Assembly (NCBI GenBank): GCA_018970395.1
Contig: JAGWWM010000007.1
Span: 14,839-78,838, forward strand
Source: Bacteroidota bacterium
GTDB taxonomy: Bacteria; Bacteroidota; Bacteroidia; Chitinophagales; Chitinophagaceae
Direction: 5' to 3'
DNA length: 64,000 bases
The notes below the pieces were generated by a model. It saw only the letters and a program-made list of their open reading frames with translations, made no database searches and was not told the origin of the DNA. Of the stretch, positions 285 to 55,024 are shown one piece after another. A program made the position numbers and the translations under genes. Numbering within the stretch: the stretch's first letter is position 1; the number at the start of each line of letters is the position of its first letter.

Positions 285-2975
285 TTATTGAGGCAAATTA
301 TAAAAGAAACGAGAACGATTGATCCTCAAATCCCTCAACACCGAGGACTTCGGACTGATGGTAATGTTGAAAGAACGAAAAATACCCAACGGCGTAACAT
401 TGATACTCATCTGCCAGCAATGCAAATCGCGCGATACCGAAGCTGTGAGATACTGTATCTGGCGCGTTACAAAATCATAGGATCCCTGTCCCTGTATTTT
501 CCATTTTTCCGTTAGATTAAAATCTCCGTTGAAATTGAGCGACTGCGTAACAAGTGTATTAAATCCGGTGTAATCAGGCTTGAGTTGTCTTGAAACATTC
601 AGCGCATAAGAAAAATTGAGACTCCAGGGAATATTAAAATCGGCATACTCGGTGGGATTTTGCCGAATCATATTTACCTCCCGGTTATATTCATCATAGC
701 CGCTGCTTCTTTCTCGGGTGTATTCCTGTTGCTCTTTTTCTTTCTTTTCATCTTTGGGTTTACTTCTGAAACTGGCATTAATGGCAAGAAAACCACTCAC
801 AAATCTACCGGGTGAAAACTTGCCCCCCTGCCAGGTGTAGGCACGGGTTCTTCTTCCAAAAGCATCCTGCTGATAAGGAGATACAATCGCGTTACCGGTG
901 AGATTAATTATTTGCAAAATATTACTACGGAAATAAATATTGAAATCACTCAACGCAAAAGAATCTGCCAACATATTATACCCGCCGCTAACACCAAAAC
1001 CATCAATCAGCCGAACTTTTTTTACCGCCTCCTCACTGCTGTCTTTTTTATTACGGACTTTCATCTCAATATTATTATCCAGCGTAAAACTTACAAAACC
1101 CGATTCTCCCTCCGACAATCCTCCAAACAAGGATCCCTCAAACCGATTGAAGCGAAAGCGATTGCCATTCGCATCTACCTGTGTTTCGTACCATTGATCC
1201 CTGGCGAGATCAGGTCTGTAACTCAAGCCAATGGTTGGGCGAATGACATGTCGGATCGCCTGCAACGAACTTTTTTTTCTGAAGTTCAAGGTACCAAATA
1301 GTGCAGTACTCAGATTCAAACCCAAACTCATCTGATTGCCTCTATAAAAGCCTTTGGAAACAGTAGTATCCACTTTATTCTGAATACTATTCCAGCTTCT
1401 CACAAAAGACTGAGCATACCATATTTCTTCATAACTGATGGCAGGCCCAACCTGTAGAAATCCGATAGCCGGCAAAGAAAGCTGAATAGGAATGCTGTGT
1501 CGCGCACCCCATTGAAAAGTGTCAATCAGCTGACGCAAGCTTACGGCACTGTCATAGAAAGAAAACTGATTGCGGAAATTCCCTATATACCCTACCCCAA
1601 GCTTCTCATACCATTTAGCCGACCCCACAAAGGTTTTTTTCTGGAATGGATAAATCGTATTCACTGTAAACCCTACATCAGGCAGACTGATATTATATAG
1701 CCGAGTAAGATTATTCTGATTATGATTGGCATTGACGGTAAGATTATAGGGCTTGCCGACCCAGGTTTTTTGATAGGAAATACTTGAATTCAACGCATTG
1801 TTAAAGTTTTGCTGTGGCACGTTGGCCAAATACTGATTAAAGAGTGTCGTTGCGATATTCACGCTGGCACTGAAGTTTTGTCCCGGTCTTGCTTTCCCGT
1901 CCACGGAATGATTCCATTGCAATGAAAAACTTCGGGTGGGTGGCTGGTAATCGGGGTCTCCTTCAAAGCCAAATTTGTTACTCAGAAAACTCAAATTGAA
2001 AGCGCCATTGTAACGATATCTCTTTCGGTAATTGGGATTAAGAAACACATTCCATGATCCATAGGAATAGATGTTACCACGCAGGGTAACATCCCAGTAA
2101 TCCCCCAGAGCTTTATAATAACCCATTCCTTCCAATCCTAAGCCCAGTTGCTGATTGACGGTAAACTGCGGAATAATCAACCCTGTTCTTCTTCCCTGTT
2201 TCAAAGGGAATAGTCCGAATGGTAAACCTATCGGGATAGGCACTCCTTCAAATTCAGGACGAACAAATCCGGTAACCGCCACTTTTTCACTAACCATCTT
2301 TACTCTTCTGGCCCGAAAAGCAAAATGCGGCGTATCAAAATTACAGGAAGTAAAGCGCGCCTTGCCCGCAAAATAAGTATCAGGCGTTATTCTTTTAACC
2401 CGTTGACCATACACAAACATTTCCCCCTCCTGCGTATAAGTGCCGCTGGTCAATCCTCGTTGACTTTTAAAATTATACCGAATGGTATCGCTGGTAAATG
2501 CTTTATCTCCCTGTTTAAAAGTGGGGGTTCCCACCTGGCGGTTGGCAGAATCCTTTACGGGATAAGCAGTGAGTATCTGTGAATTTTGATCGACCTGAAT
2601 AACAGCGGATTTCAGTTGAATATCTTTGTAATCTATTTTCCCATCGTTGTATAAAAAGATTTTCTCCGATCTTAAATCCACCACGACGGAGTCGGTTGCC
2701 GAATACTTTACCGGCTCATCAATGGAATCTTTAGCCATTTTGAAGGCAATCGTATCAGTTGCAGGAAGAATCGTATCCTTCATTGGGAAAAACAGGCTTC
2801 CCTTCCCTTCAGCTTTACACCCCCAATGCCCCTCTCCTGCTCGGACAGGATTTGAACCGGCCAACGAAAGAACAATACAAGTGAACAAGCACCACTCCCA
2901 ACAAAAAAAAATATTTTTAACTTTGACTTGCCGCAACATAATAATTAGCGGCAAAAATAGTTTCTTTTTAGGCAA
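285..2975 (-). CDS. lptD: Putative LPS-assembly protein LptD (Bacteroidota type)
   Basis: 896-aa ORF with an N-terminal OstA-like region (PVKYSATDSVV), beta-barrel-like alternation and the C-terminal RDLHCWQMS motif. True start may be 2939. Confidence 0.8.
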   Translation of the reverse strand: MPKKKLFLPLIIMLRQVKVKNIFFCWEWCLFTCIVLSLAGSNPVRAGEGHWGCKAEGKGSLFFPMKDTILPATDTIAFKMAKDSIDEPVKYSATDSVVVDLRSEKIFLYNDGKIDYKDIQLKSAVIQVDQNSQILTAYPVKDSANRQVGTPTFKQGDKAFTSDTIRYNFKSQRGLTSGTYTQEGEMFVYGQRVKRITPDTYFAGKARFTSCNFDTPHFAFRARRVKMVSEKVAVTGFVRPEFEGVPIPIGLPFGLFPLKQGRRTGLIIPQFTVNQQLGLGLEGMGYYKALGDYWDVTLRGNIYSYGSWNVFLNPNYRKRYRYNGAFNLSFLSNKFGFEGDPDYQPPTRSFSLQWNHSVDGKARPGQNFSASVNIATTLFNQYLANVPQQNFNNALNSSISYQKTWVGKPYNLTVNANHNQNNLTRLYNISLPDVGFTVNTIYPFQKKTFVGSAKWYEKLGVGYIGNFRNQFSFYDSAVSLRQLIDTFQWGARHSIPIQLSLPAIGFLQVGPAISYEEIWYAQSFVRSWNSIQNKVDTTVSKGFYRGNQMSLGLNLSTALFGTLNFRKKSSLQAIRHVIRPTIGLSYRPDLARDQWYETQVDANGNRFRFNRFEGSLFGGLSEGESGFVSFTLDNNIEMKVRNKKDSSEEAVKKVRLIDGFGVSGGYNMLADSFALSDFNIYFRSNILQIINLTGNAIVSPYQQDAFGRRTRAYTWQGGKFSPGRFVSGFLAINASFRSKPKDEKKEKEQQEYTRERSSGYDEYNREVNMIRQNPTEYADFNIPWSLNFSYALNVSRQLKPDYTGFNTLVTQSLNFNGDFNLTEKWKIQGQGSYDFVTRQIQYLTASVSRDLHCWQMSINVTPLGIFRSFNITISPKSSVLRDLRINRSRFFYNLPQ

Positions 2976-37474: not shown

Positions 37475-38953
37475 TTAATAAGCTTGAGCAAATAATACTC
37501 TTCCCTCGGAAGGTTTTCCCGTGAGGATACATTGACCCGGTTCATTTTTCCTATCCAGCGGAATACAACGAATAGTTGCCTTGGTTTTTTCCTTTATCAA
37601 TGCTTCCGTTTCAGCAGTACCATCCCAGTGCGCCGATAGGAAACCGCCCTTGGTTTCAAGCAACTGAACAAATTCATCCCAGGTATTTACTTCGGTAATA
37701 TGCTCCTGCTGATAGTTTTTGGCTCGTTGAAATATATTGTCTTGTATCTCTTCCAATAATTGTTCAATATACTCGGGCAAACCGTCCATAGATACCGACT
37801 GTTTTTGCTTTGTATCTCTTCTGGCCAATTCCACCACATTATTTTCCATATCCCTCGCACCGATTGCAATCCGTACCGGTACTCCCTTCATTTCATATTC
37901 GTTGAATTTCCAACCCGGCCTTGCATGGTCGGAATCATCATATTTCACGGATATTTTTTTAGCCTTTAATGACTTAACGATTTCAGCTACTTTTTCACTA
38001 ATAACGGATTTTTGCTCTTCTCCTTTGTAGATAGGGATAATCACTACTTGCAGCGGTGCGATGCGGGGTGGCAACACCAAACCATCATCATCGCTGTGTG
38101 CCATCACGAGCGCGCCGATCAAACGGGTACTGACGCCCCAGCTGGTAGCCCAAACATATTCCTGTTTATTTTCTTTATTCAAAAATTTGACATCAAAAGC
38201 TTTCGCAAAATTTTGTCCGAGAAAATGTGAAGTGCCCGCCTGCAACGCTTTCCCATCCTGCATCAGTGCTTCAATGCAATAAGTATCCAATGCACCGGCA
38301 AATCTTTCAGACTCAGACTTGACACCTTTTATCACAGGAAGTGCCATATATTGTTCTGCGAATTCAGCATACACATCGAGCATTTTTCGGGTCTCCTCCA
38401 CTGCCTCTTCTTGCGTAGCATGTGCCGTGTGTCCTTCCTGCCATAAAAACTCCGCAGTGCGTAAAAACAAACGAGTACGCATTTCCCATCTCACTACGTT
38501 TGCCCATTGATTGACAAGGATCGGAAGATCGCGATAGGATTGAATCCATCCTTTATAGGTATTCCATATAATGGCTTCACTGGTAGGGCGCACCACCAAT
38601 TCTTCCTCCAGTCTGGCTTCCGGATCCACCATCAACGCTCCTTTCTTGTTCGGATCGGTTTTCAGTCGATAATGGGTGACCACCGCACATTCTTTGGCAA
38701 AGCCTTCTGCGTTTTTCTCCTCCGCTTCAAACAAACTTTTAGGGACAAAAAGAGGAAAATAAGCATTTTGGTGTCCTGTCTCCTTGAACATCCTGTCCAG
38801 CACATCGCGAATATTTTCCCAGAGAGAGAAGCCATAAGGCTTAATGACCATGCAACCTCTAACAGCAGAATAATCAGCCAACCCTCCTTTCAAAATCAAA
38901 TCATTATACCACTGCGCATAATCTTTTTCGCGAGACGTAATTTCACTTGCCAT
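37475..38953 (-). CDS. proS: Proline--tRNA ligase (eukaryote/archaea-like type)
   Basis: [48 protein letters not shown]. Confidence 0.97.
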
Positions 38954-47720: not shown

Positions 47721-48161
47721 CTATTTATTTAATTGTTGAGCCTGATAAACAGTAGCATCCAGCTTCATTTGCTTCACCATGCTTAACAAACCATTGCTTC
47801 TTGTTTGGGCGAGATGCTGCTTCATACCGATCTGATCAATAAATTCAAGTTTGGCATTAATGATCTCTTCCGGTGTATGTCCACTTAACACGCGAATTAG
47901 CATACTCACTAACCCTTTCACAATCACCGCATCGCTTTCAGCTTTATAATTTACCTTACCATCATTAAAATCGCTTACCATCCATACCGTACTCTGACAA
48001 CCTTTGATTTTATTTTCTTCTTTTTTGTGAATATCATCGAGTGGCTTAAGTTTCTTACCCATATCAATGATATACTCATACTTCTCTTCCCAGGTATCAA
48101 ACAAGGCAAATTCCTCAATGATCTCCTGCTCAGTTTCTAATATAGATTTTACTTCACTCAT
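47721..48161 (-). CDS. sufE: Sulfur acceptor SufE
   Basis: YEYIIDMGK, IKGCQS.VW, SDAVIVKGL, RSNGL. Confidence 0.93.
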   Translation of the reverse strand: MSEVKSILETEQEIIEEFALFDTWEEKYEYIIDMGKKLKPLDDIHKKEENKIKGCQSTVWMVSDFNDGKVNYKAESDAVIVKGLVSMLIRVLSGHTPEEIINAKLEFIDQIGMKQHLAQTRSNGLLSMVKQMKLDATVYQAQQLNK

Positions 48162-49393
48162 CTTAACAACTTAATTGCTTTATTCAATGCCAGAATCATC
48201 ACATCAATTTCCTCCCTTGTATTATACATCGCAAAGCTGGCTCTGATTGTACCCGGGATACCGAACCGTTTCATGAGGGGTTGCGTGCAATGATGCCCGG
48301 TTCTTACGGCTACTCCATTGTTATCTAACAAGATGCCCACATCCTGCGGGTGCACTCCATCAATCACAAAAGAAGCAACGCTCACTTTATGTTGCGCTTG
48401 TCCAATTATCCTTACCCCCTCGATAGACTCTAATTGTTGTGTAGCGTATTGGAGCAATGCATCTTCATGCGCACGAATATTTCCTTTTCCAATTTCACGC
48501 ACAAAATCAATAGCAGCTTTCAATGCAACTGTATCGGCAATATTAGGAGTGCCTGCTTCAAATTTATAGGGCAAATCATTCCAGGTAGATTTTTCAAAAC
48601 TCACCTCACTAATCATTTCTCCTCCTCCGATGAAAGGAGGCATAGCTTCCAAAATAGCTTTTTTGCCATACAAGACTCCAATACCGGTTGGACCATACAC
48701 TTTATGAGAACTGATAGCAAAAAAGTCACAATCTAAATCCTGCACATCAATATCTAAGTGAACGGAAGACTGCGCACCATCCACTAAAACAATCGCCCCT
48801 ATATTATGGGCAGCGGCAATAATTTCCTTGACCGGATTAATGGTTCCCAATGCGTTACTCGCATGAACAATGGAGACCAGTTTTGTTCTCTCTGAGAGTA
48901 ATTTATAATACTCCTCCATCATCAGCTCTCCCTGATCATTGACTGGGATTACTTTTATAATCGCTCCGGTTGATTCTGCAATTAGCTGCCAAGGCACAAT
49001 ATTGCTGTGATGCTCCATTCCGGAAATGATAATCTCGTCTCCTGCTTTCAAATTGGCTTTCCCCCAGCTATAGGCAACAAGATTGATGCTTTCTGTAACG
49101 CCTCTGGTGAAAATAATTTCTTCTCTATGCCCGGCATTAATAAAATCCTTGATAGTATCACGGGTAGCTTCGTAAGCAGCGGTGGCCTCTTCCGCTAAAG
49201 AATGAATACCTCTGTGAATATTGGCATTATAAAGTTTATAGTAATCAGTCAACGCATCAATAACCACCTGCGGTTTTTGCGTGGTGGCGGCATTGTCAAA
49301 ATATACGAGGGGCTTATCTTTCACTTTTCTAATTAGAATAGGGAAAGAGGCGCGAATGGATTCAATATTAAATGTAGTATGTACTGATTGCAT
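48158..49393 (-). CDS. sufS: Cysteine desulfurase SufS
   Basis: DNAATTQKP, EHHSN, SSHK, EAGTP, RTGHHCTQP, RASF. Confidence 0.96.
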   Translation of the reverse strand: MQSVHTTFNIESIRASFPILIRKVKDKPLVYFDNAATTQKPQVVIDALTDYYKLYNANIHRGIHSLAEEATAAYEATRDTIKDFINAGHREEIIFTRGVTESINLVAYSWGKANLKAGDEIIISGMEHHSNIVPWQLIAESTGAIIKVIPVNDQGELMMEEYYKLLSERTKLVSIVHASNALGTINPVKEIIAAAHNIGAIVLVDGAQSSVHLDIDVQDLDCDFFAISSHKVYGPTGIGVLYGKKAILEAMPPFIGGGEMISEVSFEKSTWNDLPYKFEAGTPNIADTVALKAAIDFVREIGKGNIRAHEDALLQYATQQLESIEGVRIIGQAQHKVSVASFVIDGVHPQDVGILLDNNGVAVRTGHHCTQPLMKRFGIPGTIRASFAMYNTREEIDVMILALNKAIKLLR

Positions 49394-49431: not shown

Positions 49432-49567
49432 GCGTCATGTTGAGCGACAGCGAAACATCTCAAAAAGAACTCAAAATGCAAATGTCAAAAGCAATTAAAA
49501 CTTTTGGGTTTTGCCTTTTGAATTTTGAGTTAAACGCGAGATCCTTCGCTTACGCTAGGGATGACGC
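49432..49567. repeat. 136-bp palindromic miniature element, copy 1 (between sufD and sufS)
   Basis: Termini GCGTCATGTTGAGC...GCTAGGGATGACGC; about 88% identical to 53354-53489 by manual alignment. Confidence 0.92.
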
Positions 49568-49594
49568 TAGGAAATATCTAGCGCCGACATTGCT

Positions 49595-50902
49595 CTACAA
49601 ATCAAAATCGAGCCTCTCCGCAATAATTTCTTCCGCATACTTTCTGATCGGCTCCAGTTCAATTTTATCCAAAATCTCTCCGGCAAAGGCATACAATAAC
49701 AATGCTTTCGCTGCCTTCTCTCCTACCCCACGGGCACGCAAATAAAACAGAGCTTCTTCATCCAATCTTCCCACAGTACATCCGTGCGAACATTTCACAT
49801 CATCTGCAAAGATCTCAAGCTGCGGCTTTGTATTCACCGTAGCTTCATTACTTAACAAAACATTTTTATTACTTTGATATGCATTCGTTTTTTGAGCGTC
49901 TTGTCTTACAAAGATCTTTCCATTAAAAACTGCAGTTGCTTTTTCATCAATGATTCCCTTATACAATTCGTTACTGAATGAATTCGGCTGGACATTATCT
50001 ACGATCGTGTGATTATCAATATGCGTTTCCCCTTTTACACAATATAAACCATACATGTGACTCTCACATCCCGGTGCCTCTAAAATGAAATTCAAATTAT
50101 TGCGAATCATACCGCCGTTCAAAGTCAGCGTGACAGAATTCACTTTACTTACCCCAATCTGACGGATATGTGTTGTTTTCACACAATTGCTATGACTATC
50201 CTCATTCTGGATTTTATAAATATGCAACTGCGCGTTATCCTCCACAACGATTTCAGCAATACGATTGATGAATGAATCGTCAGTGCCTAATGTAATTTCT
50301 TCCTCCACAAAAAACACTTCTGCATTTGCACCAACATGAATGAGGGTACGTGGCTGCGACAAAATCTTTGCACTTCTGGCATCGTTAATGTAATAGCAGT
50401 AAACCGGATTGCTGAGCTTTTTATTTTTCTTTACTGAAATAAATAAGCCCTCATAAGCAAGAACATTGTTCATTGCATTAATACCGTCCTTATGGTATTG
50501 AGCACTATGACCCAGATGCTTATCAACGATAGCCTTATAGTCGGTTTTTACGGCCTCGCTCAACGTCAGAATATCCAGTTCATCTTTTGGTGAGAGGATT
50601 TTGGATAATTCAGCATGATATACGCCATTCACGAATACGAGTTCATTGGCTGATTCGTATCCCGGCAATCTCACTACGTCCACATCCGTTTTTGAAACTC
50701 CCGTTTTCTCTACCGCATAGTGATAATTTTTATTAAGCACGCTAGCTATTCTGGTGTACTTCCACTCCTCATGCTTCACCGTTGGAATCCCTTCCTGCTC
50801 CAAAACCTGCAAACCGGTTTTAAGCAATGCCTGAAGACTACCGTTACCCGAGAAAGGGGTTGCTTCAATCTTATTTTTAATGAGTTCTTTTACGTCTGAC
50901 AT
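49595..50902 (-). CDS. sufD: Fe-S assembly protein SufD
   Basis: EEWKYT, FNGKIFV, TNAYQ, KPQLEIFADDVKCSHG, FYLRARG. Confidence 0.96.
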   Translation of the reverse strand: MSDVKELIKNKIEATPFSGNGSLQALLKTGLQVLEQEGIPTVKHEEWKYTRIASVLNKNYHYAVEKTGVSKTDVDVVRLPGYESANELVFVNGVYHAELSKILSPKDELDILTLSEAVKTDYKAIVDKHLGHSAQYHKDGINAMNNVLAYEGLFISVKKNKKLSNPVYCYYINDARSAKILSQPRTLIHVGANAEVFFVEEEITLGTDDSFINRIAEIVVEDNAQLHIYKIQNEDSHSNCVKTTHIRQIGVSKVNSVTLTLNGGMIRNNLNFILEAPGCESHMYGLYCVKGETHIDNHTIVDNVQPNSFSNELYKGIIDEKATAVFNGKIFVRQDAQKTNAYQSNKNVLLSNEATVNTKPQLEIFADDVKCSHGCTVGRLDEEALFYLRARGVGEKAAKALLLYAFAGEILDKIELEPIRKYAEEIIAERLDFDL

Positions 50903-50913
50903 GGATTAATATT

Positions 50914-51678
50914 TTATGCTTCTACACTTTCGCCTAATTCTTCTTTAATAAAATCATATCCTTTTTCTTCCAACTCGAGCGCCAATTCTTTCCCTCCGCT
51001 CTTCACGATTTTGCCTTTGTATAATACGTGCACATAGTCAGGAACGATATAATCCAGTAAACGCTGATAGTGTGTAATCACTAGAAAAGAACGATTGCCG
51101 TCGCGAAGTTTATTCACTCCTTCTGCAACAATTCTCAATGCATCAATATCCAGTCCGCTGTCTGTCTCATCAAGAATGGCCAGAGAGGGTTCCAGCATAG
51201 CCATCTGAAAGATTTCATTTCTCTTTTTCTCTCCGCCACTGAATCCTTCGTTTAGAGAACGAGTGAGTAAAGACTGATCAATCTCGACCAGTTTCATTTT
51301 CTCTTTCATTTTCTTCAAAAACTCAACAGCATCCATTGGATCTTGTCCTTTGTACTTACGCACTTCATTCACCGCTGTTTTGATAAAGTTGGTGGTGCTT
51401 ACACCTGGAATCTCTATAGGATACTGAAAGGCAAGAAACAATCCTTCTCTAGAACGATCTTCAGGAGATAATTCCAGCAAATCTTTTCCATTAAACTCCA
51501 CTTCACCGCCGGTTACTTCATAATCTGAACGACCGGCTAATACCGATGCCAAAGTTGATTTACCACTACCATTCGGACCCATAATGGCATGGACCTCGCC
51601 TGGTTTAATATCCAGATTGATTCCTTTCAGAATTTCCTTTTCTTCAATCCTTGCTTGTAGATTTTTAATTGATAACAT
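50914..51678 (-). CDS. sufC: Fe-S assembly ATPase SufC
   Basis: [36 protein letters not shown]. Confidence 0.98.
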
Positions 51679-51696
51679 AATTTTAATTTAAGTATT

Positions 51697-51774
51697 CTTT
51701 GTGTCTTCGTGACTTTGTGTCTCTGTGTTTAAGTTTTTTTACCACAGAGGCTCAGAGACTCAGGGGCGCGGAGT
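51697..51774. repeat. Octamer-periodic inverted arrays (4+4 units), locus 2, between sufB and sufC
   Basis: ctttgtgt cttcgtga ctttgtgt ctctgtgt | cacagagg ctcagaga ctcagggg cgcggagt. Confidence 0.85.
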
Positions 51775-51779
51775 TAATT

Positions 51780-53225
51780 TTACCCAACGCTTCCTTCTAA
51801 AGATATCGCCAACAACTTCTGCGCTTCCACGGCGAATTCCATTGGCAACTGATTCATTACCTCTTTAGCAAAACCATTGATGATTAATGCCACAGCGGTT
51901 TCCGTATCCAGTCCTCTTTGATTACAATAAAAAATCTGATCTTCTCCGATTTTGGAAGTCGTTGCTTCATGTTCTACCTGCGCCGTATTATTTTTTACTT
52001 CGATATAAGGGAATGTGTGTGCTCCGCATTTATCTCCCAGCAACAAACTATCACACTGCGAAAAGTTGCGCGCGTTGACCGCATTCGGAGCTACTTTAAC
52101 CAACCCTCTATATGAGTTGTGGCTGAATCCGGCAGAGATACCTTTTGATACGATTCGACTCTTGGTGTTTTTACCGAGGTGAATCATTTTCGTTCCGGTA
52201 TCCGCTTGTTGATGATTATTCGTAACCGCCACGCTGTAGAATTCTCCTACACTATTATCCCCTTTTAAAATTACAGATGGATATTTCCAGGTAACTGCGC
52301 TTCCTGTTTCCACCTGTGTCCAGGAGATTTTGGAATTTATGCCTGAGCAGATCCCACGCTTCGTAACAAAATTGTAAATACCACCCTTCCCTTCTTTATC
52401 ACCGGGATACCAATTTTGAACAGTAGAATATTTTACTTCCGCATTATCCAATGCAACGATCTCTACTACCGCCGCATGCAACTGATTTTCATCGCGCTGA
52501 GGAGCTGTGCATCCTTCGAGATAACTCACGTAAGAACCTTCTTCCGCTACAATCAGCGTTCTTTCAAACTGTCCAGTACCCGCCGCATTGATACGGAAAT
52601 AAGTACTCAGTTCCATCGGACATTTAACACCTTTAGGGATATAGCAGAAACTTCCGTCGCTGAAAACTGCACTGTTCAAAGCAGAATAAAAATTATCTGT
52701 TACTGGCACCACTGACCCTAACCATTTTTTAATCAGTTCCGGATGCTCCTGAATTGCTTCACTCATGCTGCAGAAAATGATACCCATTTCTGCCAGCTGG
52801 GTTTTGAAGGTCGTCGCTACTGATACGGAATCAATCACTGCATCCACCGCCACTCCACTTAAACGTTTTTGCTCATCTAAAGAGATCCCTAATTTTTCAA
52901 AAGTGGCTCTTAATTCGGGGTCCACTTCATCCAGACTGTTTAACACCTTCTTCTGCTTGGGCGCACTATAATATTTAATCGCCTGAAAATCCACATCCGG
53001 ATAGGAAACATTAGACCAACGGGGAACTTCCATTTTCTGCCATTGACGAAATGCTTTCAATCGCCATTCCAGCATCCACTCTGGTTCATTTTTTTTGGCA
53101 CTGATAAATCTTACAATATCCTCACTCAAACCCGGAGGAGCTTCATCTGCCTCAATGTTAGTCACCCAGCCGTATTTGTACTCGCTTAACGCGGTCTGCT
53201 CGAGGGTGGTCAACATTTCACTCAT
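51780..53225 (-). CDS. sufB: Fe-S assembly protein SufB
   Basis: [41 protein letters not shown]. Confidence 0.98.
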
Positions 53226-53277
53226 ACGAATTATGTTTAATTATTTAATGATTTATATTATACAAGAAACACTTTTG

Positions 53278-53285
53278 CAAAGGTA
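53278..53285 (-). promoter_or_regulatory. -7 promoter of the suf operon
   Basis: TACCTTTG 52 nt upstream of the sufB ATG. Confidence 0.7.
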
Positions 53286-53290
53286 ATGTC

Positions 53291-53312
53291 ATTTATACAA
53301 AAAAGTATAAAT
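53291..53312. promoter_or_regulatory. Perfect palindrome, candidate Rrf2 operator
   Basis: ATTTATAC-AAAAAA-GTATAAAT, inside the promoter spacer. Confidence 0.5.
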
Positions 53313-53353
53313 AAAGTTTTAAAAGAGTAAAAATTCCTGTGAAGAACTACATA

Positions 53354-53489
53354 GCGTCATGTTGAGCGAAAGCGAAACATCTCAAAAAGAACTAAAAAGT
53401 CAAATGTCAAAAGCAATTAAAAATTTTGGGGTTAGCCTTTTGAATTTTGACTTAAATGCGAGATCCTTCGCAATAGCTCAGGATGACGG
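53354..53489. repeat. 136-bp palindromic miniature element, copy 2 (between gltD and the suf promoter)
   Basis: Termini GCGTCATGTTGAGC...GCTCAGGATGACG; same orientation and length as copy 1. Confidence 0.92.
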
Positions 53490-53518: not shown

Positions 53519-55024
53519 TCACCCTACTCTTTGTAAAATACTGGCATCCTTAGACTCCAGAACGGAAGTGCCCTGTAAAAAGGCATCCACCGAGCGGGCG
53601 CATTCGCGACCTTCGGAGATGGCCCATACCACCAGACTCTGTCCGCGGCGCATATCTCCACAGGTGAAAATCTTATTGATATTGGTCTGATAATTTTGTT
53701 CTGTTGCTTTCACATTGCCCCTTTCATCCAACTCCACTCCCAATTCCTGCAATAATCCATCAAACTGAGGATGTACAAAGCCCATCGCCAGTAAGGCCAA
53801 TTCACAGGGAATCTCTCTTTCACTGCCGGCACGCTCCACAAATTTGGATGGGCGACCCTCTGTACCTATCTCCCATTCCAGATCCACAATGCGCAAAGCT
53901 TTCAAATTTCCCTTTTCATCTCCAATGAATGCCTTTGTTGCCACCGCCCATTTCCTGTCCGCCCCTTCCTCATGTGAACTAGAGGTTTTCAAAGTCATAG
54001 GATATGTAGGCCAGGGCATGAAGTTGGTTCGATTCTCGGGTGGCTTCGGTAATAATTCAAACTGCGTTACACTCTTCGCACCATGCCGATTGGAAGTACC
54101 CACGCAATCACTACCTGTATCACCGCCGCCAATCACAACCACATTCTTTCCTGTAGCTAAAATCTCATTCAACCAAACATTGCTTTCTATTTTTCCATTT
54201 TCCCAGGGATTGGCTCCATCCACACGCTTGTTTTGTTGCTTTAAGAAATGCATGGCATAATGTACTCCGTTAAAATCTCTCCCCGGAATATCCAGATTGC
54301 GCGGAACAGTTGAACCTCCAGCAAGTACAACAGCATGAAAATCTCTCAGTATATCATCAATACTTACATTGACTCCCACATTAGCAAGACATTGAAACGT
54401 AATCCCCTCTGCTTTCATTAATTCTATTCTTCTATCCACCACCCACTTCTCCAATTTAAAATCAGGAATCCCATACCGCAACAAACCTCCCGGCTTCTCA
54501 TCTCTTTCAAAAACTGTCACCTGATGACCTGCATAATTTAATTGAACGGCCGCAGCTAATCCCGCAGGACCACTGCCTATCACCGCTGCTTTTTTACCCG
54601 TACGGAGATTGGGTTTCTTCGCTTTTACAAATCCTTTTTCAAACGCAATTTCAATAATGTGCTTTTCAATTTCCTCTATTGCTACCGGTGGTTGGTTGAT
54701 GCCTAATACACAAGCACTCTCACAAGGAGCCGGACAAATCCTTCCGGTAAATTCAGGGAAGTTGTTGGTAGAAGAAAGAATCTCGTAAGCTTCCTGCCAC
54801 TCTTTTCTGTACACCGCGTCGTTGAATTCAGGAATGATATTGCCAAGCGGACAACCACTATGACAAAAAGGAACACCACAATTCATGCAACGCGCCGATT
54901 GCTTATTCAAATCCTCGTCTGAATATTTTTGCACGAATTCTTTATAGTCCTTTACTCTTTCTTCTACTGCTCTCTTTTCAGGAAGATTTCTTGTAAATTC
55001 TAAAAATCCACTTGGTTTGCCCAT
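53519..55024 (-). CDS. gltD: Glutamate synthase small subunit
   Basis: CMNCGVPFCHSGCP, GSGPAGLAAA, GGGDTGSDC, GDMRRGQSLVVWAI. Confidence 0.97.
   Translation of the reverse strand: MGKPSGFLEFTRNLPEKRAVEERVKDYKEFVQKYSDEDLNKQSARCMNCGVPFCHSGCPLGNIIPEFNDAVYRKEWQEAYEILSSTNNFPEFTGRICPAPCESACVLGINQPPVAIEEIEKHIIEIAFEKGFVKAKKPNLRTGKKAAVIGSGPAGLAAAVQLNYAGHQVTVFERDEKPGGLLRYGIPDFKLEKWVVDRRIELMKAEGITFQCLANVGVNVSIDDILRDFHAVVLAGGSTVPRNLDIPGRDFNGVHYAMHFLKQQNKRVDGANPWENGKIESNVWLNEILATGKNVVVIGGGDTGSDCVGTSNRHGAKSVTQFELLPKPPENRTNFMPWPTYPMTLKTSSSHEEGADRKWAVATKAFIGDEKGNLKALRIVDLEWEIGTEGRPSKFVERAGSEREIPCELALLAMGFVHPQFDGLLQELGVELDERGNVKATEQNYQTNINKIFTCGDMRRGQSLVVWAISEGRECARSVDAFLQGTSVLESKDASILQRVG

Follow-up and report, generated by a model that had tools for sequence, protein, structure and literature searches.

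Why two copies of a 136-nt palindromic element should stand, in the same orientation, on either side of the genes sufB, sufC and sufD is the question raised by a 64,000-nt stretch of DNA from a Bacteroidota bacterium of the family Chitinophagaceae (assembly GCA_018970395.1, contig JAGWWM010000007.1). We refer to this whole stretch as the window, and positions are window coordinates unless they are prefixed with a contig of a named genome, G000 being the window's own genome (2.42 Mb, 74 contigs, 41.6% G+C). Our analysis suggests that each element is in all likelihood a dimer of two 29-nt hairpin units of the class known as CGTC-tagged repetitive extragenic palindromes (REPs), arranged with their tags outward around a conserved 76-nt spacer, that the units are probable targets of an Ssn-like nuclease, and that the bracketing of sufBCD is incidental. 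Neither this class of repeats nor the enzyme that is its likely partner is new to the literature.

The two elements, copy 1 (49432-49567) and copy 2 (53354-53489), both in plus orientation, were borne out at the positions given in an earlier note on this DNA. They differ by 15-16 substitutions and no indels (88-89% identity), close to the 16 or so substitutions that had been claimed, and the likeness between them breaks off abruptly at either border. Their distances 3' of stop codons, 27 nt from sufD for copy 1 and 29 nt from gltD for copy 2, are likewise as claimed. Each copy is a complete, solitary long-spacer dimer with unique flanks, copy 1 being located in the sufD-sufS spacer within the suf operon and copy 2 between the gltD stop codon and the sufB promoter region. 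A long hairpin is predicted on both strands of the copies (-43 to -53 kcal/mol, z = -5.6 to -7.4), with none of 200 shuffles equally stable, and Rfam contained no family that matched the elements. The nested stems that had been described within them (GTCAT/ATGAC, TGAGC/GCTCA and CGAA..ATCTC/GAGAT..TTCG) are present, but a reading as two separate hairpin units of 29 nt suits them better than one as a single long, imperfect inverted repeat.

When a terminus is considered by itself, the anatomy of the unit becomes clear: it folds alone into a tag, a 9-position stem, a 4-nt loop and a 3-nt tail (CGTC, ATGTTGAGC, GATA, GCGAAACAT, CTC). The left (L) unit of copy 1 (49433-49461, plus strand, with its CGTC tag on that strand) is self-folding, carries the GT/AC stem variant and reads CGTC, ATGTTGAGC, GACA, GCGAAACAT, CTC. 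It is followed by the A/T-rich, structured 76-nt spacer, or long core (49462-49537), which forms a hairpin of its own, and then by the right (R) unit (49538-49566, minus strand), which carries the CC/GG stem variant, reads CGTC, ATCCCTAGC, GTAA, GCGAAGGAT, CTC on the minus strand and is slightly degenerate in that CCTAGC replaces CTGAGC. Copy 2 repeats this arrangement, with an L unit (53355-53383, plus strand; CGTCATGTTGAGCGAAAGCGAAACATCTC), a structured 76-nt spacer (53384-53459) and an R unit (53460-53488, minus strand; CGTCATCCTGAGCTATTGCGAAGGATCTC in the minus-strand reading).

Across G000 the family comprises 77 hairpin units, most of them paired in dimers, which are spread over about 53 intergenic loci. 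All 77 units match [CT]GTCAT..TGA.C...G.GAA..ATC, and an unpaired CGTC tag stands at both outer ends of both suf copies. The stems (ATGTTGAGC/GCGAAACAT and ATCCTGAGC/GCGAAGGAT) have 9 positions, start with AT and form 7 Watson-Crick pairs plus a tandem G.A; the 4-nt loops are GATA, GACA or GTAA, and the 3-nt tail is CTC, as against the CCA consensus of CGTC-tagged REPs. Within this frame the palindrome is invariably preceded by GTC and followed by C, in the 77 units and in the suf copies. The left unit is of the GT/AC variant and the right unit of the CC/GG variant (36 and 37 units, respectively, with 4 exceptions), and the variable stem positions are compensatory in 73 of the 77. What looked like fixed mismatches between the two arms of an element arise because the left and right units are different stem variants, making the element a heterodimer.

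This anatomy can be compared with that of the CGTC-tagged REPs (Di Nocera, De Gregorio & Rocco 2013, BMC Genomics 14:522, PMC3733652), in which an unpaired CGTC or TGTC tag is joined to an 8-9 bp stem that starts with A-T pairs, a 4-5 nt loop and a 3-nt tail with the consensus CCA. Those repeats are intergenic and are found for the most part as tags-outside (HH) dimers, frequently heterodimers, whose spacers measure 20-100 bp. They are not known to have an associated transposase and are reported to be unlinked to tyrosine transposases, and the class, with four published families, takes in the dRS3 repeats of Neisseria, RPE-4/6 of Rickettsia and a Bacteroidetes example (PMC3733652). Our elements share the CGTC tag, the stem of 8-9 positions starting with A-T, the 4-nt loop and the unpaired 3-nt tail, as well as the tags-outside dimers with spacers of 20-100 bp (which can be conserved and structured), the heterodimers of two stem variants, the intergenic location with few copies between divergent genes, and the absence of a linked transposase. 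They differ in having a conserved tandem G.A/A.G stem mismatch and a CTC rather than a CCA tail, and in that many copies are located in larger composite repeats and host nested micro-hairpins of 20-28 nt.

The unit extends far beyond this genome. Scanning approximately 185,000 species genomes with the right unit (24 fixed bases) yielded at least 119 stretches, and in the matches listed two units nearly always stand in inverted orientation on either side of a variable spacer. The stretches are distributed over Acidobacteriota, Chloroflexota, Bacillota, Cyanobacteriota, Verrucomicrobiota, Patescibacteria, Omnitrophota, Proteobacteria, Rhodothermota, Bacteroidota and other phyla. The variable triplet, of which there are 8 types, is perfectly complementary in 237 of the 252 units among the matches listed, compared with a maximum of 158 in 1000 shuffles of the partners. 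One 28-nt unit, GAGATCCTTCGCNNNNGCTCAGGATGAC, recurs letter for letter in metagenome-assembled genomes of at least 15 phyla (loci L097-L215), and such identity in phyla so far apart argues for either strong constraint by a conserved protein or frequent horizontal spread. When translated, the 28-nt unit gives …EILRxxSG… and …VILSxxKDL…, strings that are frequent in spurious small open reading frames from metagenomes.

In Neisseria, the partner of the repeats is SsnA, a 94-aa single-domain GIY-YIG protein (CDD cd10448; Chenal et al. 2025, Nat Commun 16:2388, PMC11893778). SsnA binds the 28-nt hairpin CGTCATTCCCGCGMAVGCGGGAATCYRG solely as single-stranded DNA (ssDNA) and makes its cut a few bases upstream; cutting depends on the three bases that precede the palindrome and binding on the C that follows it, and the enzyme is inactive on RNA. 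Homologues of Ssn across bacteria are flanked by related hairpins, the SRMs, whose stem variant changes with the nuclease lineage; the mobility of Ssn-linked repeats is a hypothesis only (PMC11893778).

In G000, the sole GIY-YIG gene of this type (C30:22472-22765) encodes a 98-aa single-domain protein with a PF01541 match above the cut-off. The stop codon of the gene is followed 11 nt later by an R unit, and six units are clustered within 330 nt of the 3' end; Y7, Y18 and E66 of the protein have a spacing like that of Y6, Y17 and E64 in SsnA. The units also share with the Neisseria repeats (NTS) and with SRMs the frame CGTCAT-stem-loop-stem'-ATC of about 28 nt, the conserved GTC before and C after the palindrome, a dispersed, intergenic distribution of tens of copies, and the adjacency of a single-domain GIY-YIG gene of about 95 aa to its own units, with the stem variant following the nuclease lineage. 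Homologues of the protein (45-56% identity) are present in 16 of the 26 genomes of the genus, and 8 of 10 inspected homologue loci carry CGTC units of their own within approximately 1 kb, with other stems (CGTCATTGCGAGGAACGAAGCAATC or CGTCATTTCGACGCAAGGAGAAATC), a lineage-specific pairing of the kind described in PMC11893778. Clustering of the genes that neighbor the 119 listed cross-phylum loci revealed no dominant family; only the small GIY-YIG family recurs, being located 30-90 nt from the motif at 4 of the 119 loci, in four phyla, among the matches listed. A second, different small GIY-YIG gene in G000 (C9:26975-27229, 85 aa) has a tRNA gene on either side, and CGTC units are absent from its vicinity.

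We therefore suggest, from these likenesses of sequence and arrangement, that the elements are CGTC-REP dimers that probably work like SRMs, as distinct from proven SRMs. The units would serve as recognition sites of the Ssn-like nuclease, to be bound in single-stranded DNA and nicked a few bases upstream, and the family would have spread and turned over in the lineage in a manner that may depend on the same enzyme.

A number of results weigh against this assignment. The published degenerate SRM pattern, HGTCWYN(0-2)YYVSBRHN(0-5)WNVSBRGN(0-2)RNCYNB, has no match among the L and R consensus sequences and the four suf units, with the NTS control matching, and G000 contains 4 strict matches to it compared with 3-13 in shuffles; in this the units differ from the NTS and SRM hairpins, and the published screen would miss the branch. 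NCBIfam gives the 98-aa protein a weak GIY-YIG match and no specific family, and it has no solved relative. Three of the 26 genomes in the genus are repeat-rich, and no homologue of the nuclease was seen in the two besides G000 (G015 and G035, 74% and 69% complete, respectively). Many members of the genus have a homologue without this repeat variant, and 115 of the 119 listed cross-phylum hairpin pairs have no such GIY-YIG gene within the locus. Across the genus, the co-occurrence of nuclease and repeat shows no clean correlation, which is partly explained by the lineage-specific stems beside the homologues. Finally, the literature offers no demonstrated mechanism of mobility for repeats of this class, and among the sites compared with relatives there was no clean pair of filled and empty sites with exact boundaries.

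As the units escape the SRM pattern, the published counts of such systems are probably underestimates. A freshwater or soil lineage of Bacteroidota with a CGTC-REP/Ssn-like system of this kind is of interest for its branch outside the published pattern, for its extreme cross-phylum conservation and for the question of how such repeats spread.

The proposal in the earlier note that the element is non-autonomous agrees with what was found in G000, in that the elements form a gene-less, multi-copy and probably non-autonomous family, all of whose loci are intergenic; the two suf copies are far from being its only members. Searching G000 with the elements gave 58 matches and a more sensitive census 72 places, and a search with the 29-nt termini alone (blastn-short) returned 52 left and 51 right termini, nearly all in short-range pairs. 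The tags point outward in all 37 L...R pairs, whose spacers measure either 22-27 nt or 70-102 nt. Short-spacer elements (24-nt spacer, 83 nt in total) number about 22, and long-spacer elements of the 136-nt type about 12, with a spacer that is typically about 76 nt. All 66 termini or elements are intergenic in a genome with a coding fraction of 88%. The majority of copies form part of larger composite repeats; no more than 7 of the 37 paired elements have unique sequence on either side, and both suf copies are among these 7.

A size of 83-136 nt, inverted termini, an intergenic multi-copy habit and a patchy distribution are also what one would expect of a classical miniature inverted-repeat transposable element, mobilized in trans by a DDE transposase that recognizes the 29-nt termini as terminal inverted repeats. 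We consider this exceedingly improbable: target-site duplications are absent from all 7 solitary copies, no L...R pair in the G000 census encloses a gene, the genome contains no insertion sequence with these ends, and each terminus is an independent hairpin with a compensatory stem variant of its own, for which a transposase-binding inverted repeat would have no need. The inverted doublet of two small palindromes that together form a larger hairpin, the non-autonomous habit and a long life with some vertical inheritance (one copy is shared with the relative G015) are reminiscent of REPINs, the REP doublets associated with RAYTs, or REP-associated tyrosine transposases (Bertels & Rainey 2011, PMC3116915; Nunvar et al. 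2010), and G000 does contain one Y1_Tnp gene (C16:37177-37518). It is very improbable that this single RAYT-type Y1 transposase mobilizes our elements, which lack the GTAG tag and belong to a class reported not to be linked to tyrosine transposases (PMC3733652). The repeat that flanks the Y1 gene is another hairpin (GAACCCCGTTGGGGTTC / CCCACCGATTCCATCGGTGGTT) and not a CGTC unit, and the partner that we propose for the CGTC-REP dimers is a GIY-YIG nuclease, not an HUH tyrosine transposase. The RAYT-like Y1 gene (C16:37087-37530, minus strand; PF01797, 76 bits) has its own tandem REP-like doublets (GAACCCCGTTGGGGTTC, CCCACCGATTCCATCGGTGGTT) upstream at 37560-37743, and these form a separate REP/RAYT system. 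Integron attC sites were also compared by inspection and rejected: the L unit contains GTTGAGC, which is GTTRRRY-like, but the order of core sites is reversed and the R unit is without RYYYAAC.

The earlier note had further proposed that the element favors sites just 3' of genes. This holds weakly: divergent promoter regions are under-represented (5 of 44 loci, compared with 27% of spacers of at least 60 nt), and facing 3' ends are nearer than facing 5' ends (median distances of 108 nt and 154 nt, respectively), but the spread is wide, and the 27-29 nt seen at the two suf copies is no rule. The orientation of the elements relative to the transcription of neighboring genes is about balanced across the family.

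For the most part, the short-spacer elements occur as modules within longer composite repeats, built as a CAAAGAGGCAAAGCTCGCAAAGG-type array, a dimer, CTACCGAAATGTGTGGCGCTGGCAAGGCAGAACGCGCGG, arrays of the heptamer CGTTTTT, ACGACCAACGATAAACGAATATGGTTTGC and the next dimer. Such composites are found at G000 C11, C72, C31:61198-61479, C57:18936-19207, C23:76980-77258 and elsewhere, and many contig ends fall inside the arrays. CGTC units also host two nested micro-hairpins, N1 (about 20 nt; TTTATCCCGAGAATCGGGA) and N2 (about 28 nt; TCCCGYAGACGCTTCGCTACGGGACAGG), whose positions in the L and R units mirror each other and which show no target duplication. N1 has nine occurrences at the same position of the L unit, with sites at C1:67653-67673, C1:94684-94704, C50:52222-52242, C50:66638-66658 and on C19, C34 and C60, whereas N2 is found at C30:8874-8901, C19:125-152 and C14:7500-7527. 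Hairpins of similarly small size (20-28 nt) that are inserted into other repeats and leave no target duplications have reportedly been described by Elhai and co-workers in 2008 among the very small nested dispersed repeats of cyanobacteria; these differ in host phylum and in sequence, and the nested inserts here occupy mirror-image positions of CGTC units.

With the family described, the bracket itself can be addressed. The genes of the neighborhood are all on the minus strand, and their names, including those of a sufT-like gene and sufE, were confirmed by NCBIfam models: sufS (48158-49393), sufD (49595-50902), sufC (50914-51678), sufB (51780-53225) and gltD (53519-55024). The two copies enclose sufD, sufC and sufB (49595-53225; TIGR01981, TIGR01978 and NF008773, above cut-offs), which are context and lie outside the elements. 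Copy 1 is hosted by the 201-nt sufD-sufS spacer, and the sufB start follows 128 nt downstream of copy 2. TAnnTTTG is the promoter consensus of Bacteroidota, and a candidate -7 box of this type for sufB (TACCTTTG, 53278-53285, minus strand), proposed from the motif, is situated in a block between copy 2 and sufB that is conserved in the nearest relative; copy 2 is outside this block. A second palindromic repeat family, of the GTGTCTCTGTG ... CACAGAGGCTCAGAG type, is located between sufC and sufB (51694-51778), inside the suf operon.

The idea that the pair forms a unit through which sufBCD is amplified or deleted found no support. The two copies are 88% identical to each other and match copies on contigs C30, C1 and C50 at 85-89% identity, and as they are no closer to one another than to copies on other contigs, we take them to be independent family members rather than products of a local duplication. 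Pairs of loci within 4 kb number 11, compared with 4.6 expected if 53 loci were placed uniformly over 2.4 Mb, so that spacing of this kind is expected by chance. Public runs from independent metagenomes were inspected for junctions and depth through assembler contigs, which break at repeats; depth is flat across sufS, sufBCD and gltD (7.9, 8.7 and 10.1, respectively, in the best run), and every apparent rearranged joint carries the short spacer of another family member. Both copies are present at the same sites in independent metagenomes, one from soil and two from freshwater, and a strain of approximately 95% identity has termini at the sufD-sufS site.

Comparison with relatives adds a second line of evidence. 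The distribution is patchy within the genus, and the nearest species-level relative, G015, whose flanking genes are 82-88% identical and in which gltD and sufB are also adjacent, has neither suf copy at the orthologous sites. Its gltD-sufB spacer contains a different, CACAGAG-type repeat, and its sufD-sufS spacer contains a tandem array of the CACAGAG-type repeat together with a small GxxExxY-like gene, while in more distant relatives the sufD-sufS spacers are short (70-110 nt) and unrelated. G015 shares one orthologous copy (C51:27018), lacks the copy at C30:26652 and has the CACAGAG-type repeat substituted at one further site. When empty sites were simulated and compared with relatives, no alignment crossed the junction, and three sites were resolved by eye, with exact boundaries absent. 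A conserved copy, an empty site and a substitution, all at orthologous sites, suggest that these spacers are hotspots with turnover.

The G015 spacers merit description in their own right. The GTGTCTCTGTG ... CACAGAGGCTCAGAG type family fills three of them (gltD-sufB, sufD-sufS and the C2:81672 site) where G000 has long-spacer CGTC dimers; its G015 sites are L089 1-360 and 4640-4725 (G015:C14) and L227 (G015:C50). The two repeat families seem to replace each other at the same hotspots. Between sufD and sufS of G015 (C14; L089 ~365-750, minus strand), beside a tandem array of repeats of about 120 nt, lies a GxxExxY-like gene of about 128 aa (…GPGLLESVYEAC…), a selfish-looking insertion in the suf operon whose G000 homologue (C14:5505-5786) is 38% identical. 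G000 and G015 together present old, vertically inherited copies alongside recent turnover at hotspots, and offer material for learning how CGTC REPs spread.

On this evidence the two suf copies would be independent solitary insertions into spacers that are repeat hotspots of the lineage, and their bracketing of sufBCD would be a by-product of the density of the family and not a functional unit. The bracket looks incidental, and for the suf locus itself the consequence is small: it appears to have arisen by chance from the density of the family, and no sign of a change in copy number was seen.

Work in Neisseria provides a model for a bracket with a function. In N. meningitidis, NTS cluster around particular genes, and DNA with the arrangement NTS-gene-NTS transforms less well when SsnA is present (PMC11893778). 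By analogy, the Ssn-like nuclease could cut incoming sufBCD ssDNA at both elements, each dimer offering one unit per strand that is predicted to be cuttable, and so lower the recombinational replacement of an essential block or insulate it. The fixation of both copies in three independent metagenome populations favors such a role, but pairs at this spacing are expected by chance, the nearest relative has neither copy, and what the elements flank at other places in G000 are small accessory cassettes rather than core genes. We regard a protective bracket of this kind as distinctly improbable.

A further possibility is that copy 1 acts at the level of RNA. It lies between sufD and sufS with no recognizable promoter or terminator and is probably transcribed, and REP and MITE hairpins are known to stabilize or destabilize mRNA (PMC3733652). 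As a -53 kcal/mol hairpin in the sufBCDSE transcript, strongly folded on the mRNA strand, it could shield the upstream sufBCD message from 3' exonucleases or create an RNase III site, setting the SufBCD:SufSE ratio in the manner of REP and Correia elements elsewhere. Neither copy resembles an intrinsic terminator, as defined by a G+C-rich hairpin followed by a T run, and the mRNA-strand bases after the hairpin are ATTATAAAATA. A single metatranscriptome contains 5% of the words, as contigs, with nothing specific to the suf copies. This regulatory role, which had also been put forward in the earlier note, is unlikely in our estimation: orientation relative to neighboring genes is balanced across the family, SsnA is inactive on RNA (PMC11893778), and the same operon in the nearest relative has no such element and quite different inserts. 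Since the relative's operon runs without the element, any effect of copy 1 would be a side effect and not a conserved regulatory design.

A bolder extension of the CGTC-REP assignment is conceivable, and we hold it to be quite unlikely. Units of the form CGTCAT-NN-TGAGCG...GCGAA-N'N'-ATCTC might constitute a large pan-bacterial Ssn-type branch that the SRM pattern missed; the nuclease-plus-dimer system might still be active here, inserting or replacing repeats at sufD-sufS and gltD-sufB; and dimers that bracket genes might mark ssDNA units that can be excised or protected. Were this true, it would be the first case of repeat mobility driven by a GIY-YIG protein, and sufBCD and toxin-antitoxin cassettes would be examples of such bracketed units.

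Cassettes that resemble toxin-antitoxin systems are flanked by CGTC dimers at G000 C30:7661-10194 (L031 860-3395) and C68:5870-6890 (L032). They comprise two pairs of HEPN and nucleotidyltransferase genes and one DUF4160/DUF2442-like pair, adjoined by a HigB/HigA-like pair, and recall the "repeat-gene-repeat" clusters published for the NTS of Neisseria. Further along contig C30, a polysaccharide-locus block with glycosyltransferase and asparagine-synthase genes (L031 4000-7300, corresponding to C30:10800-14100) has zero contig coverage in the freshwater runs X5 and X7, both of which hold its flanks; the block is a strain-variable region bordered by repeat elements.

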